Source of the DNA: Minisyncoccota bacterium
Lineage (GTDB): Bacteria > Patescibacteriota > Minisyncoccia > Phycocordibacterales > UBA9973
Length of the DNA: 64,000 bases
Direction of reading: 5' to 3'
Assembly (NCBI GenBank): GCA_039915165.1
Contig: JBDSNU010000018.1
Location: 166,617-230,616 of the forward strand
The translations under genes were made by a program, and so were the position numbers. Numbering within the stretch: the first letter of the stretch is position 1; every line of letters begins with the position of its first letter. Of the stretch, positions 2,694-43,119 are shown piece by piece. The notes under the pieces were generated by a model. It was not told where the DNA came from and did no database searches. It saw only the letters and a list, made by a program, of their open reading frames with translations.

Positions 2694-3905
2694 ATGAAGA
2701 ATTTTAGTTTTAAATCAATTTTGGCCCCAGTGCTAGCTATCGTTATGGCGGTGGTTTTTGCGACCCAAGTGTCTGCAATGACCCCAACTTTAACCCTAGT
2801 TTCAAATGGCAACGGGACAATTCAAACAACAGTCTATGCTGATGCTAATGCAAGTGTGATCTTGGATTATTATTCAGGCGGACAATTAATGGGAGCTGGC
2901 GTAGTAGGTACTACTAACTATAGTGGATACTTCAACGGCACTATTAATACTTATCAGTACAACATCCCAAGTGGTGCCCCTGTATTGGTAGTAGTTAATG
3001 GACAGCAGTCTGCTACTACAACATGGCCAACAACCGGCTATAACAATGGCGGATATAATTACAACAATAATACCGTTACTCCATTGCTTAGTCAGAGTAG
3101 TCTCAATATGACAGTAGGGCAGAATGGCAGTGTGACTATCAGTGGTAATGGCTACAGTAATAATGGTCAGTACTACATCGCCAACAGTTCAAACAATGTT
3201 GCGAATGCAACTATCAGCGGTAATACAGTAAGTGTGTATGCGGTGAATACTGGTACAACAACAATCAGTATTTGTTCAAACAGTTTAGTAAATACAATTA
3301 GTTATGGCCTTGGTAATTACACAGGCTCATGTGCTTCATTGTATGTAACTGTTACAGGTAGTTATTACAACCCACCAGTTGTATATACTCCTCCTGTATA
3401 TAACTACCCAACGTATCCTACCTACCCTACATATCCAACTTACCCGACATATCCATATAACAACAATAATAATTACAATAACTATAATTCTAATTACAAC
3501 TACTCTTCACCAATCAGTGTAAGTAATAGTACTGTACAAGTTACAGTTGGAAATACAGGTACAGTAAATTTGTTCGGAGGTGATACTAACAATTACAACA
3601 ACAATGTATATCCATACAATAGTGGGTATAACACTGGCTACAATACAAGTAGTTATTATGTAACTACTAACAACAACTCAGTTGCTACTGCCACAGTAAA
3701 CGGCAATATACTAACTATCTACGGTACAAATGCTGGTAACACTACTGTTACAGTGTGTGGAACAAATGGCAGTCAGTGTGCAACAGTAAACATTACTGTG
3801 ATCGCACCAACTTACTATGTGAACAATGGCGGATATAACAATTACCAAAATCAAAATGGTAACTGGTACTACTCTGAATCCAAGCATTGTTGGATGCACC
3901 GATAA
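2694..3905 (+). CDS. secreted N/T/Y-rich cell-surface protein with Big-like repeats and a (PTY)5 tandem repeat
   Basis: signal peptide MKNFSFKSILAPVLAIVMAVVFA; three repeated beta-rich segments ending '...TVTVCGTNGSQCATVNITV'; PTYPTYPTYPTYPTYP. Confidence 0.5.
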   Translation: MKNFSFKSILAPVLAIVMAVVFATQVSAMTPTLTLVSNGNGTIQTTVYADANASVILDYYSGGQLMGAGVVGTTNYSGYFNGTINTYQYNIPSGAPVLVVVNGQQSATTTWPTTGYNNGGYNYNNNTVTPLLSQSSLNMTVGQNGSVTISGNGYSNNGQYYIANSSNNVANATISGNTVSVYAVNTGTTTISICSNSLVNTISYGLGNYTGSCASLYVTVTGSYYNPPVVYTPPVYNYPTYPTYPTYPTYPTYPYNNNNNYNNYNSNYNYSSPISVSNSTVQVTVGNTGTVNLFGGDTNNYNNNVYPYNSGYNTGYNTSSYYVTTNNNSVATATVNGNILTIYGTNAGNTTVTVCGTNGSQCATVNITVIAPTYYVNNGGYNNYQNQNGNWYYSESKHCWMHR

Positions 3906-38991: not shown

Positions 38992-39074
38992 AGTGGTATT
39001 ACTATACGTATTGTGTTGATGGACTATTTCTGAAGTCTGAATGACACAGTAATAGAAAATAAATAACAATATAT

Positions 39075-40466
39075 ATGACAACGACTAGCGCTCCTCGGGG
39101 CAATAATTTTTCTCGTTCTGAGGGTTCTTCTTCAGGGCGTCGCAGTGAAGGGGGTTCATTCTCTCCTCGCTCAAACAGTAACGGTGGTGGATTTTCATCA
39201 CGACCTCGCTTCGGTGGAGGTGGCAATAGTGGCGGTAACGGCGGTGGATATCGCGGAGGCAACTCTTCTGGCGGTTTTAATAGAGGAGGTTCGAACACTT
39301 CGCCTCGCCGTAGTTTTAACGGAGGCGGGTCTTTTGGTGGCAACAAGCGTCGCTCATTTAAAGGCGACAACATCGACGAAACACGTTTCGTTAATCGCGC
39401 AGTAGATAACGTAGAAGAAGTTGCACACATTGCAAAACACACATTTGCTGACTTCGGTGTACACGAAATGCTTGCTAAGAACTTAGCAGCAAAAGGCTAT
39501 GTACAACCTTCACCAATTCAAGATCAGGCTATCCCTGTAGCATTGCAGGGTGGTGATGTGATTGGTATTGCAAACACTGGTACTGGTAAAACAGCAGCGT
39601 TTCTTATTCCTATCATCAACAAATTGGTAAGTGATAAGAACCACAAAGTAATGGTACTTACTCCTACTCGTGAACTAGCACAACAGATCGAAACAGAATT
39701 TCGTTCTATGACTGTTGGTATGCGTCTATGGTCAGTATCTGCAGTTGGTGGACTTCCTATCATGCGCCAGATCCGTTCATTGGAAATGGGTGTGCATATC
39801 GTGATCGGTACACCTGGACGTGTGAAAGATCTTATTGCTCGCAATAAAATCAACATGGCTCAGTACAGTACTATCGTTCTTGATGAAGCTGACCGTATGA
39901 TGGATATGGGATTCATTGATGACATGCGCATGATCCTTGGTGGTATGCCAAAAGATCGTCAGAGTCTTTTCTTCTCTGCAACATTCTCTCCAGAAATCCG
40001 TACTCTTTGTAATGACTTTTTGAATAATCCTACAACTGTAGCAATCAAGACTCGTGATACTGCTTCAAACGTTGATCAGGATATCATCCGTGCTCACCCA
40101 GCTGATCGTGTTGAAAAACTTCATGACTTGCTTACTTTGCCAGAATTTACAAAAGTATTGATCTTCCGCGAAACAAAGCATCACACAGATGAACTTGCTC
40201 GTGAATTGAAAGATCGTGGGTTTGCAGTTTCTGCATTGCACGGCGACATGCGTTCTCGTGAACGTTCTCGTGCTGTGGAAGCATTGTCAAAAGGACAGAT
40301 CCAAGCAGTGATCGCAACTGACGTTGCAGCTCGTGGTATTGATATCCCAGATATCTCTCACGTGATCAACTTCGATACACCTTCAACATACGACACCTAT
40401 GTTCACCGAATCGGCCGTACTGGTCGTGGTAACAAAAAGGGTATTGCGCTAACATTCGTTCGCTAA
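39075..40466 (+). CDS. DEAD-box ATP-dependent RNA helicase with N-terminal Gly/Ser/Arg-rich tail
   Basis: Q-motif, 'ANTGTGKTAAF', 'VLDEADRM', 'SAT', 'HRIGRTGRG'. Confidence 0.9.
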   Translation: MTTTSAPRGNNFSRSEGSSSGRRSEGGSFSPRSNSNGGGFSSRPRFGGGGNSGGNGGGYRGGNSSGGFNRGGSNTSPRRSFNGGGSFGGNKRRSFKGDNIDETRFVNRAVDNVEEVAHIAKHTFADFGVHEMLAKNLAAKGYVQPSPIQDQAIPVALQGGDVIGIANTGTGKTAAFLIPIINKLVSDKNHKVMVLTPTRELAQQIETEFRSMTVGMRLWSVSAVGGLPIMRQIRSLEMGVHIVIGTPGRVKDLIARNKINMAQYSTIVLDEADRMMDMGFIDDMRMILGGMPKDRQSLFFSATFSPEIRTLCNDFLNNPTTVAIKTRDTASNVDQDIIRAHPADRVEKLHDLLTLPEFTKVLIFRETKHHTDELARELKDRGFAVSALHGDMRSRERSRAVEALSKGQIQAVIATDVAARGIDIPDISHVINFDTPSTYDTYVHRIGRTGRGNKKGIALTFVR

Positions 40467-40508: not shown

Positions 40509-40519
40509 TATGGAACAAT

Positions 40520-40543
40520 TGTGCGTTACTAAGCAAAGCACAT
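40520..40543 (+). repeat. REP-like palindromic repeat L1 (tgtgcgttactaagcaaagcacat)
   Basis: near-identical to copy at 41251 and inverted relative to 40588 copy. Confidence 0.7.
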
Positions 40544-40587
40544 TTATAAAATATTCATATATATTTGATGGGTAGTTTTCTACAATA

Positions 40588-40612
40588 ATGTGCTTTGCTT
40601 AGCAACGCACAT
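40588..40612 (-). repeat. REP-like repeat L2 (inverted copy, atgtgctttgcttagcaacgcacat)
   Basis: reverse complement of L1 with 1 mismatch; abuts transposase ATG. Confidence 0.7.
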
Positions 40613-41251
40613 ATGAGAAAAGAAAAAATAACAACAGGAGAGTATTATCATATTTATAATAGAGGTATACATAAACAAACGATATTTCATGATCGTTCGG
40701 ATTATGCACGCTTTCTTTTTCTTGTGCTCTATTTTCAATCAGAAGTAATTTTAAAGAATGTCTCGAGGATGATTATTGGATATTTGAAAAATATGTACTT
40801 TTCTATACAAAATAAAGATTTACAAGAAATACTTCATCATAAAACAATTGAAATAATTGCATTTTGTATTATGCCAAATCATTTTCACATTCTGATTAAA
40901 CAATTAAAAGATGACGGTACTTCATCATATATGCACCGCGTACTGGGAGGGTATTCAAGATACTATAACAATAAATATGGTACAACTGGGCATATATTTC
41001 AAGCAACATACAAATCTGTACTCGTAAAAAATAATATTCAACTGCTCTACCTAACAGCATATATTCATAGAAATCCTCGCTCGCTATCTCTTTGGTATGG
41101 AAAAGAATTGCAGTATGAATGGTCTAGTTATCAAGATTATTGTGGAACTAATCGGTTTGGCGAGCTTGTATTATTCTCTGTTATCCTCAATCAATTTCAT
41201 CTTAAAAGCGCATACTATTCATTTGTTGAATCAAGTCCCGCAAAAGAGTAA
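40613..41251 (+). CDS. IS200/IS605-type Y1 (HUH) transposase, REP-associated (RAYT-like)
   Basis: HUH 'MPNHFHILI'; catalytic Tyr context 'AYIHRNP'; flanked by REP-like repeats. Confidence 0.65.
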   Translation: MRKEKITTGEYYHIYNRGIHKQTIFHDRSDYARFLFLVLYFQSEVILKNVSRMIIGYLKNMYFSIQNKDLQEILHHKTIEIIAFCIMPNHFHILIKQLKDDGTSSYMHRVLGGYSRYYNNKYGTTGHIFQATYKSVLVKNNIQLLYLTAYIHRNPRSLSLWYGKELQYEWSSYQDYCGTNRFGELVLFSVILNQFHLKSAYYSFVESSPAKE

Positions 41252-41275
41252 TGTGCGTTGCTAAGCAAAGCACAT
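41251..41275 (+). repeat. REP-like repeat R1 (atgtgcgttgctaagcaaagcacat)
   Basis: same orientation as L1, 1 mismatch; begins at the transposase stop. Confidence 0.7.
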
Positions 41276-41347
41276 CCTATGGAGGTTTTTGTTTTCTTGA
41301 CTAAAAAACTGACAATGGTAAGGTGAAGAAAACAAAAAATTACCACT

Positions 41348-41701
41348 ATGGCAGACTTGAAAAAAGTAGTACTGAAAGAATACTCTGATCGGATTATAAA
41401 ATTTGTTCCTTCGGATGAAATCAATGGATGTAGTGAAATCATCCCAGATCAAAAAACAAAAGTTGTTGTACACGAAAAAACGTACCGAGGTGAATCTATA
41501 TATGATCCTGGGTTGGAAGATAGTGTAAAAGTCAGAAATATTACCGCAGCAGACGTTGCTGCTATTCTGGCAAACAATGGAGAATGTTTTGTCCAAGTTA
41601 ATCACAATGGAGAATTACGAATGCCTAGTAATGGTTCTGGTCGCAAAATGCTGGTGATACATTTAACCAAGGAAGTAGTTACTGAAGGTCTTGCTAGTTA
41701 A
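41348..41701 (+). CDS. hypothetical protein
   Basis: 117-aa ORF with terminator-like hairpin downstream. Confidence 0.35.
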   Translation: MADLKKVVLKEYSDRIIKFVPSDEINGCSEIIPDQKTKVVVHEKTYRGESIYDPGLEDSVKVRNITAADVAAILANNGECFVQVNHNGELRMPSNGSGRKMLVIHLTKEVVTEGLAS

Positions 41702-41746
41702 CTGTGTACTAAACCCTCGCTATTCGTAGTGGGGGTTTTATTATTG

Positions 41747-41819
41747 AGCCGTTGATCGGGATTGAACCGATGACCTCATTCTTACCATGAATGTGCTCTA
41801 CCAACTGAGCTACAACGGC
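41747..41819 (-). tRNA. tRNA-Thr (GGT)
   Basis: acceptor GCCGTTG/CAACGGC, anticodon stem CATTC/GAATG loop ATGGTAA, T-arm ATCGG-TTCAATC-CCGAT. Confidence 0.8.
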
Positions 41820-41935
41820 GAGCGAAAGATATTCAGGAGCTTGCTCATGGAATATCAGAGCGAAGCCGTTGCAGTGATAGCTACAACGGCAGACTAATAC
41901 TACCTACTTCCTCGCTCCTAAAAGATACCACGACT

Positions 41936-41980
41936 AATAAAAAACGCCACTTATTTTTAATAAGTGGCGTTGTCTGTTTT
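41936..41980 (-). terminator. rho-independent terminator (for minus gene 41991-42566; also hairpin+T on plus)
   Basis: hairpin acgccacttatt-ttt-aataagtggcgt between A7 and T-rich tract. Confidence 0.7.
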
Positions 41981-41990
41981 AGCTAACGAT

Positions 41991-42566
41991 TTAATAATCG
42001 ATAGCAAAGGACTTTGCGGCCTGAAACACTGAATACTTTCGCCGTTGTAAAAGTTTCCGGTCTTTTAGAAAAACTTTTACTAACGCAAATGCTTCATATA
42101 CCACAGAGCGCCAATACTTTCTAGTCGGTGCCCCAACAAAGTGGATAGTAAATCCACCAATCAGTGACCAAATGTACTCAATCCTTATTTGATGTGTTTT
42201 TGAGGAAACAACAAATAATTCATCCACATTGAGCTCTTCCAGGAATAGGGCAGTAGCAAGGCTTTCATTTGAGGTGTTCCACACATCAGGTCCGATTAGA
42301 GTGATAGTAGGAATGTAACTAATACTGCCATTGTTGTACAGTGCCGTCAGATCAGATTGTAGTCGATCTCCCGTTAGTGCTTTCAATTGAGGATAACTGG
42401 CGTAAATAGGATGACTGCCCGCAGCAAGCAAAATTTCGAATCGATACTCAGTATGAGTAGTGATGAAACCCCGTAGCTCTTTTTTGCGGAATAAACTTTC
42501 GAGACCCAAACGGGTTCCTTTATAGCAGGTATCCCCGCCATAAAGAAGAATATAGGTTTTTTTCAA
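41991..42566 (-). CDS. YdcF/DUF218-family protein
   Basis: 'ILLYGGD' and 'FVVSSKTHQIR' DUF218-like motifs. Confidence 0.45.
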   Translation of the reverse strand: MKKTYILLYGGDTCYKGTRLGLESLFRKKELRGFITTHTEYRFEILLAAGSHPIYASYPQLKALTGDRLQSDLTALYNNGSISYIPTITLIGPDVWNTSNESLATALFLEELNVDELFVVSSKTHQIRIEYIWSLIGGFTIHFVGAPTRKYWRSVVYEAFALVKVFLKDRKLLQRRKYSVFQAAKSFAIDY

Positions 42567-42665
42567 GCGGTAATTTTTTCTTAAGATTACAACATTTTAC
42601 GTTATTGTCAATAAAATTTGTCAGATAGCATTGATCACGGTAAAGTTAAGAAAAATATAATAATT

Positions 42666-43037
42666 ATGAGTAGTGTACAAACTGTAAGTAGGTTGCCCGG
42701 TTCAAGTAAAACCACAGCGGAGCTCAAATCTTTTTTGTTGAAATTTTATTCGACATATAAACGATTTAACAATGCTGGTAATGCAGCACAGCAAAAAAAG
42801 TTTAATGAAATTGTTGTTGTGCTCAATCGTGTAGCAAAAAATGCCAAGCTTGATGAGATTGATTCCATTTACTGGAATGAAGAGTCCTTATTGGTATCTG
42901 AGGTTTTTATGTCATCAGGGGATGCACGGACTGCTGTCATTGGTTTTTATCGCGTTTACAGGATTACCTCTTGGGGTGATGAAAACGATGCCATTTTGCT
43001 CGATGACTTGTTGCAATCACCGCTACTGAAACTGTAA
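42666..43037 (+). CDS. hypothetical protein
   Basis: ORF-track start is TTG at 42618; first ATG 42666. Confidence 0.35.
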   Translation: MSSVQTVSRLPGSSKTTAELKSFLLKFYSTYKRFNNAGNAAQQKKFNEIVVVLNRVAKNAKLDEIDSIYWNEESLLVSEVFMSSGDARTAVIGFYRVYRITSWGDENDAILLDDLLQSPLLKL

Positions 43038-43046
43038 ATGTAAAAT

Positions 43047-43070
43047 GGGCCCCGTAAAAGGGGCTTTTTA
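43047..43070 (+). terminator. rho-independent terminator
   Basis: gcccc-gtaaaa-ggggc + TTTTT. Confidence 0.65.
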
Positions 43071-43119
43071 CTACATGGGCTTTATTTTTTTCAAATTTCA
43101 TGTATAATTGCGGTTCATT

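Follow-up and report, generated by a model that had tools for sequence, protein, structure and literature searches.

Background

Class 2 Y1 transposases (TnpA-Y1), which include the REP-associated tyrosine transposases (RAYTs; REP, repetitive extragenic palindrome) and the TIR-associated tyrosine transposases (TIRYTs; TIR, terminal inverted repeat), are the textbook domesticated transposases of bacteria. The subject of this work is a gene for a Y1 HUH endonuclease which, together with three copies of a short hairpin, is found in a 64-kb stretch of contig JBDSNU010000018.1 from a Minisyncoccota bacterium (Patescibacteria); the whole stretch is referred to as the window and all window positions follow its numbering. 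An original prediction, made from the sequence, had described the gene as a RAYT/IS200-like transposase flanked by REP-like palindromes. In the window the locus shows a RAYT-like gene with private hairpins and not a REP system, and it is probably a resident, vertically inherited class 2 Y1 HUH module (RAYT/TIRYT-like, a REPtron/TIRtron) whose hairpins belong to it alone, neither part of an amplified REP family nor of an active insertion sequence (IS).

TIRYTs and their TIRtrons correspond to TnpA-Y1 subclass 2.1 and to Bertels group 1 (Di Nocera et al. 2013, PMC3733652; Quentin et al. 2018, PMC6006769), and among TIRtrons, cases in which the repeats are not dispersed and the TIRs are self-complementary have been described (PMC3733652). 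Canonical REPs are defined by a GT[AG]G foot (PMC6006769), and conserved synteny and vertical descent are hallmarks of RAYT-type domesticated genes and not of IS200 (Bertels et al. 2017, PMC5581495). The largest of the class 2 TnpA-Y1 subclasses, 2.1, has been reported without hairpin partners. Patescibacteria lie outside the coverage of two of these surveys (PMC3733652, PMC6006769), and in the limited collection of literature that was searched no link between this group, or the candidate phyla radiation (CPR), and RAYTs or TnpAREP was found.

Protein family and fold

A Pfam search with the window protein at E-values up to 1 revealed Y1_Tnp (PF01797) only (43.1 bits, gathering threshold 23; E 5.5e-11; residues 70-154), so that the protein passed the hidden Markov model (HMM) check that had been proposed for it. 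The HUH and Tyr motifs named in the original prediction are both present, as P88-N-H90-F-H92 and Y150-I-H-R-N-P155, and are accompanied by GHIFQ and W170-S-S-Y. Among 58 aligned homologues H90, H92 and Y150 are invariant and N16-R17, N154, P155 and W170-S-S are invariant or nearly so (55-58 homologues); the invariance of the HUH and Tyr residues argues for retained nuclease chemistry. A single-sequence phmmer search against PDB sequences gave no match at E up to 1, and a profile of the family matched ISDra2 TnpA (E 4e-4) and E. coli TnpAREP (4ER8, E 0.07). The AlphaFold2 model of the protein has a mean pLDDT of 91.9 and its best PDB match in Foldseek is TnpAREP in complex with a REP hairpin (4ER8; E 4.6e-6, TM 0.66, target-normalised), followed by the TnpA proteins of IS608, ISDra2 and IS200, with all of the top 20 PDB matches being TnpAREP, IS608, ISDra2 or IS200 transposases. 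Based on the Y1_Tnp score, the invariant motifs, the profile matches and the match of the model, the window protein is regarded as a genuine Y1 HUH enzyme with a predicted structure nearest to that of TnpAREP.

The assignment to RAYTs proper did not hold, since the NCBIfam equivalog model REP_Tyr_transpos gave 42.7 bits, below its cut-off of 80; the transpos_IS200 equivalog gave 15.9 bits, likewise under its cut-off of 55. By motif inspection, and not by the HMMs of the survey's authors, the protein would fit class 2 and come closest to subclass 2.1, whose signature of NH[YF]H, FQ, Y[IV]HxNP and an SS tail (PMC6006769, Table 1) corresponds to NHFH, GHIFQ, YIHRNP and WSSY in the window, FQ replacing WQ/WE in both. 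Further likenesses to the TIRYTs are a low copy number, dissimilar paralogues within one genome, a gene bracketed by putative terminal inverted repeats, L2 and R1 (some of the published TIRs being self-complementary), and flanking repeats that are often not amplified elsewhere. The window protein is shorter (212 aa versus a median of 238), no C-terminal helix-turn-helix (HTH) or DnaA_C-like domain (Bac_DnaA_C, HTH_23 or HTH_28-like) was detected in it, its C-terminal 55 residues being modelled as short helices, and its gene flanks lack the GGGGWSAS motif and instead carry compact perfect hairpins. Furthermore, no REP-like secondary structures were found beside subclass 2.1 genes (Quentin et al. 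2018), whereas 15/15 of the genes studied here have them.

With E. coli TnpAREP (RAYT, subclass 2.2; 4ER8) the locus shares, besides the best structural match, the Y-x3-NP motif, a single-copy vertical gene, inverted cognate palindromes and co-variation of protein and hairpin. It differs in sequence (~15% identity, and a score under the RAYT equivalog cut-off), in having no GTAG guide, in its short hairpins (3-nt loop, long bulged stem absent), and in that no dispersed population of REPs or bacterial interspersed mosaic elements (BIMEs) exists in the DNA sampled.

Hairpins at the window locus

The whole window was searched with the 25-mer ATGTGCGTTGCTAAGCAAAGCACAT at up to 3 mismatches, using 100 dinucleotide shuffles as control. 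Matches appeared at exactly three sites, all of them bracketing the Y1 open reading frame (ORF), and 0 matches were obtained in the shuffles; the three repeat copies of the original prediction were thereby recovered, with the orientations it had given them (Table 1). L1 repeats R1 in the same orientation with slight degeneration, and L2 and R1 are reverse complements at 25/25 positions, forming perfect inverted repeats of 25 bp. L2 ends one base ahead of the ATG, as had been claimed, and the first base of R1 is the final base of the TAA stop.

Table 1. Positions of the hairpin copies, the Y1 gene and its motifs in the window
Feature	Positions	Strand	Remarks
L1, distal upstream hairpin copy	40519-40543	+	2 mismatches vs R1; 8/10 stem pairs; same orientation as R1
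L1-L2 spacer, AT-rich, 44 nt	40544-40587	+	TTGATG at 40565-40570, 10-nt gap, TACAAT at 40581-40586
L2, proximal upstream hairpin	40588-40612	-	0 mismatches
Y1 HUH endonuclease gene, 212 aa (TnpA-Y1 class-2-like)	40613-41251	+	
HUH motif, H90-F-H92	40880-40888	+	
Y150-IHR-NP	41060-41077	+	
W170-S-S-Y	41120-41131	+	
R1, downstream hairpin	41251-41275	+	0 mismatches

Folding of the copies as single-stranded DNA (ssDNA), a check likewise proposed beforehand, gave for L2 and R1 a structure of 6 bp, one mismatched pair, 4 bp and a 3-nt loop with energies of -7.8 to -8.5 kcal/mol (z about -4.5), and for L1 a weak fold (-3.9 kcal/mol, z -1.7). When L1, the spacer and L2 are taken together they form a single long hairpin (-28 to -30 kcal/mol, z -8.6 to -9.4), and the inverted pair of L1 and L2 has a REPIN-like geometry. 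A search of Rfam at a permissive E-value placed plant and animal microRNA-precursor models on this long hairpin, all sub-threshold and spurious.

A TTG start at 40595, within L2, was considered and ruled out, since the listed close orthologues (>=62% identity) all align from MRK(E/Q)KIT, regardless of where their starts are annotated. Start-codon annotation in the Y1 family is unreliable: P0002, from an NCBI metagenome-assembled genome (MAG) of Candidatus Paceibacterota and apparently the same gene (100% identity), is annotated with 152 aa, 72% of the ORF, and the annotations of other homologues, for example P0001 (248 aa) and P0003 (233 aa), are over-extended upstream through the hairpin.

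The family and its hairpins in other Patescibacteria

At least 690 relatives were obtained by a word-indexed protein search, mostly labelled 'transposase' and nearly all of 210-240 aa, and those with a named source all come from MAGs of the Patescibacteria type (Paceibacterota, Nomurabacteria, Zambryskibacteria, Minisyncoccia) or from unclassified 'bacterium' MAGs. A phmmer search of 1.84 billion cluster representatives (50% identity) gave 18,057 matches at E<=1e-3, 6,579 at <=1e-10 and 85 at <=1e-30. The original prediction had held a copy in a CPR-like genome to be notable, which stands weakly in so far as the classification surveys omit the phylum, and loses weight in that the 690 or more Patescibacteria relatives are already in public databases. 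The annotation of many 'transposase' calls in Patescibacteria MAGs could be improved accordingly, as they are probably not mobile IS elements. When IMG/VR was scanned with the family profile only two distant relatives were found (24-32% identity), and there is therefore no sign of a phage-borne family. One further observation concerns L068 (IMGVR_UViG_3300033553_000531, ~3001-3513), where, on a contig classified as viral, a Y1 relative of 24% identity has a palindrome of its own, ATACGATGAC..GTCATCGTAT, on its flanks and part of a further copy upstream; the layout of a gene with private hairpins thus reaches well past the close family.

The loci of ten homologues (designated by L numbers) were compared together with L030, which came from a scan for DNA patterns, and contain 15 Patescibacteria Y1 genes when paralogues are counted. 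In 15/15 a locus-specific hairpin of 23 nt ends 0-24 nt ahead of the annotated start and another copy lies at most about 55 nt from the stop, before or after it. These hairpins combine a 10-bp stem with a 3-nt loop, mostly have a TGT...ACA foot and often have CGA/TCG as the loop. Their sequence is of type A, TGTGCGTTGC, in the window, L001, L030 and L071 and of type B, TGTTAGGTAC, in L003 and L013. Paralogues in one genome (L008, L010) are 27-50% identical and each has a different hairpin.

A third copy is present for 13/15 genes and its place depends on the clade. In the clade of the window (window, L001, L003, L013) it lies 60-110 nt further upstream, and in a second clade (L012, L057, L010, L069, L070) it lies in-frame within the ORF at nt 171-193 (6171-6193 in L057), upstream of HUH, where it encodes F-V-x-x-R-x-L-[DN], a peptide that changes with the hairpin; a decayed trace of the in-frame copy can be seen at L008 10171-10193. 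The Y1 gene of the window has no internal copy. For the second L008 paralogue the third copy lies past the adjacent methyltransferase gene, and none was found for the other two L010 paralogues or, within the readable flank of their short contigs, at L030 and L071. In-frame REP copies in tnpA are described for subclass 2.4 (PMC6006769), the internal copy seen here differing in lying upstream of HUH and in having no GT[AG]G foot. Subclass 2.6 resembles the present family in its atypical hairpins without GT[AG]G, its YIH[QN]NP motif and its SS tail (PMC6006769), and is set apart by NH[LIV]H and WQ, by its occurrence in Bacteroidetes and by copies elsewhere in the genome. Each single feature of the locus has a precedent, and what is new is the combination of them in Patescibacteria together with the regular hairpin layout. 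An abundant family in which a 2.1-like protein is accompanied by compact, covarying hairpins in very small and nearly repeat-free genomes offers a minimal, clean system for studying the specificity between protein and hairpin and how REP families start or fail.

Copy number of the hairpin

The dispersed REP family that was part of the original prediction was not recovered. In the 63 kb of flanking DNA no further copies of the window hairpin were found at <=3 or at <=5 mismatches, and at <=5 mismatches cognate hairpins occurred only beside their genes in the loci tested this way. The ten longer loci, about 226 kb, contain one stray hairpin, a lone type A copy in a tRNA-rich spacer (L013 5107-5129) which has a syntenic counterpart in L054 (1153-1175) and is identical to a hairpin flanking the L001 Y1 gene. 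Lone type A hairpins with no Y1 gene nearby were also seen in low-GC (guanine plus cytosine) contigs of CPR-like character (L040 1114, L041 1045, L047 1697); all of these solo hairpins are intergenic, with the form TGTGCGTTGC..GYAACGCACA, and may either mark sites from which cassettes were lost or represent rare dispersal of the hairpin. A scan of GTDB species genomes with TGTGCNTTNCTNAGCAANGCACA, the window genome not being among the representatives, gave 3 single matches, all in Bacteroidota and at about chance level. When metagenome contigs were scanned with TGTGCRTTRCNNNGYAAMGCACA, 42 loci were obtained, most of them unrelated single palindromes on contigs of 33-65% GC; L030 alone carries a Y1 gene, and the genomes of the window and of L001 are not among these contigs.

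The density of REPs in a genome such as that of E. coli is, by our own estimate, roughly one per 10 kb, which would put 5-8 copies in the window, and the count obtained rules such a density out. Neither GTAG nor GTGG adjoins any hairpin that was tabulated with its flanks, the foot being TGT...ACA. Of the BIME-like arrangement typical of RAYTs that had been proposed, the position of the gene inside cognate palindromes stands, and does so for 15/15 homologues; a dispersed family finds no support in the DNA sampled, and the GT[AG]G foot is absent. It had also been said that a repeat confined to the three sites, joined to a protein falling short of the Y1_Tnp threshold, would speak against the proposal; within the window the repeat is so confined, and the protein scores well above the threshold.

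These results bear directly on whether the locus is a genuine REP/RAYT system, with a hairpin from a high-copy REP/REPIN family that is dispersed in the unseen genome and mobilised by the RAYT. Such a system would account for the REPtron-like layout, the REPIN-like pair of L1, spacer and L2, the Y-x3-NP motif with TnpAREP as best structural match, and the lone hairpins of the same type in CPR-like contigs (L013, L054, L040/L041, L047). It is nevertheless quite improbable, given the empty 63-kb flanks, the one stray copy in ~226 kb, the shortfall against the 5-8 expected copies and the absent GT[AG]G foot, together with a protein under the NCBIfam RAYT cut-off whose motif signature matches subclass 2.1, a group reported to lack REPs (PMC6006769).

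Synteny, phylogeny and composition

A profile search of all ORFs in the window found one Y1 gene. The order SHOCT - DEAD helicase - Y1 - ... - BipA is common to the window, L001 and L003, and DEAD - Y1 - BipA is found in L013 as well; the identities between these loci are 62-72.5% for Y1, 75-92% for the DEAD helicase and 94-98% for BipA, and all three proteins give L001-L003 as the closest pair. An identical protein, P0016, was found on 23 contigs from many samples and is situated between Pth-CYTH and S1 in 10/10 of the places listed, which is also the context of its 69%-identical orthologue in L008. Judged from these comparisons, position and phylogeny of the gene follow those of the neighbouring housekeeping genes, as would be expected from vertical inheritance at low copy number.

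The window Y1 gene has a GC content of 30.5% against 40.1% in the rest of the window, and its GC at third codon positions (GC3) is 22.5% against 34-40% in neighbouring genes. In 14/14 loci tested the GC content of the Y1 gene lies 2 to 15 points below that of its surroundings, and this AT-richness persists despite conserved synteny and vertical descent.

Changes at the DNA level

The split into hairpin types A and B disagrees with the gene tree. Between L001 and L003, the closest pair, four stem pairs differ in all three copies, with the spacer between the copies still alignable, and L013 carries type B at its gene and a solo type A elsewhere, which suggests that whole hairpin sets get replaced. 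A second kind of change was seen between gyrA and the SBP gene, where L008 (17453-19059) has a cassette in which a methyltransferase gene and a Y1 paralogue, in this order, are separated by one hairpin and enclosed by two more, and L057 (11797-11813) has at the same junction a spacer of 17 nt only and no cassette. Replacement of hairpin sets and presence or absence of the cassette argue, indirectly, that the pair of enzyme and hairpin may still occasionally act on DNA. At this same junction, in L008 as in L057, the SBP gene begins with the 9 nt of the hairpin arm, ATGTCAAAG, with a probability by chance of ~0.01 (rough estimate).

The cassette would also fit an active IS200/IS605-type element, in the window an IS of ~757 bp moving by peel-and-paste with L1 and R1 as left-end and right-end hairpins. 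The TnpA proteins of such elements (subclass 1.1: IS608, ISDra2) share with the window protein the HUH/Y1 fold and a presumed ssDNA substrate, and their units of ~0.7 kb have subterminal hairpins at both ends; the IS200-like size, the single Y1 gene, the direct orientation of L1 and R1 and the AT-richness of the gene would all fit. However, IS200/IS605 elements have a protein of ~150 aa with Y-x3-Q, where the window has Y-x3-NP, and they have multiple near-identical copies, strand-specific ends with a guide/target tetranucleotide and no conserved synteny. The transpos_IS200 score is far below its cut-off, the gene is single in 64 kb and occupies the same genomic position in relatives with Y1 proteins only 62-67% identical, its tree being congruent with those of the neighbours, and the identical protein on 23 contigs has one context in every place listed. 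With paralogues within a genome that are anything but near-identical, and with AT-richness in all loci tested despite long residence, an active IS is very improbable.

Signals around the start and stop codons

No Shine-Dalgarno sequence precedes the ATG of the window gene. Directly upstream of L2 and of its counterparts in L001, L003 and L013 the motif TTGAT[CG]/TTTAAC-N9-10-TAYAMT was identified, a putative promoter. In the second clade -35-like and -10-like hexamers stand on the two sides of the upstream hairpin or are partly formed by it, and several of these loci have a TATAAT-like box 6-7 nt ahead of the ATG; a sigma-70 consensus scan called none of these sites. A terminator scan called neither L2 nor R1, and R1 is not a canonical intrinsic terminator since no T-run follows it.

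Such positions would suit purely cis-regulatory palindromes, acting as an operator over the promoter, as a 3' mRNA stabiliser or terminator, or as a translational hairpin, next to a protein that no longer processes DNA there. The hairpins stand exactly at the start and stop of the gene, in the second clade they lie between or supply promoter-like hexamers with the ATG just past the -10 box, they have no copies elsewhere in the DNA sampled, and their unconserved orientation fits a symmetric double-stranded site. This explanation is nonetheless regarded as unlikely: the invariant catalytic HUH and Tyr of the 58 homologues argue for retained nuclease chemistry, R1 has no T-run, L1 lies upstream of the putative promoter, the in-frame copy is hard to explain as an operator or a terminator, and replacement of hairpin sets as well as gain and loss of the cassette point to activity at the DNA level.

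Proposed mechanism

Cleavage and rejoining of ssDNA next to hairpins have been shown for E. coli TnpAREP and for IS608 TnpA. In the resident module favoured here, the hairpins with their 10-bp stems and 3-nt loops would form when the region becomes single-stranded, at the replication fork or during transcription, and would be bound by the protein, after which the HUH-bound metal and Tyr150 could cleave and rejoin the ssDNA beside them. Either this activity or selection for cognate recognition would keep the three local copies alike, a form of concerted evolution, and would allow occasional replacement of hairpin sets or movement and deletion of the cassette, without amplification of the hairpins into a genome-wide REP population. 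Since the start codon and a promoter-like motif directly adjoin the proximal hairpin, binding of the protein there would probably also limit expression of its own gene.

Several observations weigh against this reading or against parts of it. Binding and cleavage of ssDNA hairpins by the window protein are inferred from distant relatives of 12-15% identity, and no conserved guide or cleavage tetranucleotide was found within 15 nt on either side of the tabulated hairpins, the orientation of which relative to the gene varies between loci, unlike the strand-specific ends of IS200/IS605. In favour of the reading, among 23 distinct hairpins 94.3% of cells are paired, with double compensatory changes at 10/10 stem pairs and a covariation score of 0.688 (0.20 when shuffled, <=0.12 in slid registers), but since the hairpins were found by a palindrome search this pairing statistic is partly circular; the informative signal is the constant position, size and foot in combination with a changing stem. 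Moreover, if the palindrome were a double-stranded operator for a dimer, covariation would be expected to the same degree. As to autoregulation, the promoter-like motif upstream of L2 was read by eye, and a scan with the sigma-70 consensus called no promoter in the L1-L2 spacer, its counts not being above those of the shuffles. Finally, zero extra copies in 63 kb leave room for a dispersed family of up to ~30-50 copies (95% bound), a figure resting on an assumed genome of about 0.6-1 Mb.

A somewhat different view, which is possible although doubtful, is that of a self-contained, vertically inherited module across Patescibacteria, with three hairpin copies at most of the genes inspected, in which the only genomic substrates of the enzyme are the hairpins at its own gene and the whole works as an ssDNA-hairpin switch instead of a repeat-spreading transposase. 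It is suggested by hairpins that overlap the start codon, the putative promoter and, in one clade, the coding sequence too, and the switch would consist either of autoregulation or of reversible excision and re-insertion of the enzyme's own gene. Replacement of hairpin sets without replacement of the gene, and the AT-richness of the gene, could then be by-products, the latter perhaps of frequent single-strandedness.

Neighbouring features

Downstream of R1 (41276-43100) the window differs from L001, L003 and L013. The tRNA-Thr(GGT) gene at 41746-41819 is inverted relative to the relatives together with its conserved upstream motif, and two ORFs, of 117 aa (41348-41701) and 139 aa (42618-43037), have no Pfam match and no obvious counterpart among the called genes of the relatives; the rearrangement breakpoint adjoins R1. 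On the upstream side the DEAD-box helicase has an N-terminal extension of ~100 aa which is rich in Gly, Ser, Arg and Asn and RGG-like (39075-39400), and an antisense ORF, probably spurious, runs through the same low-complexity DNA at 39002-39442.

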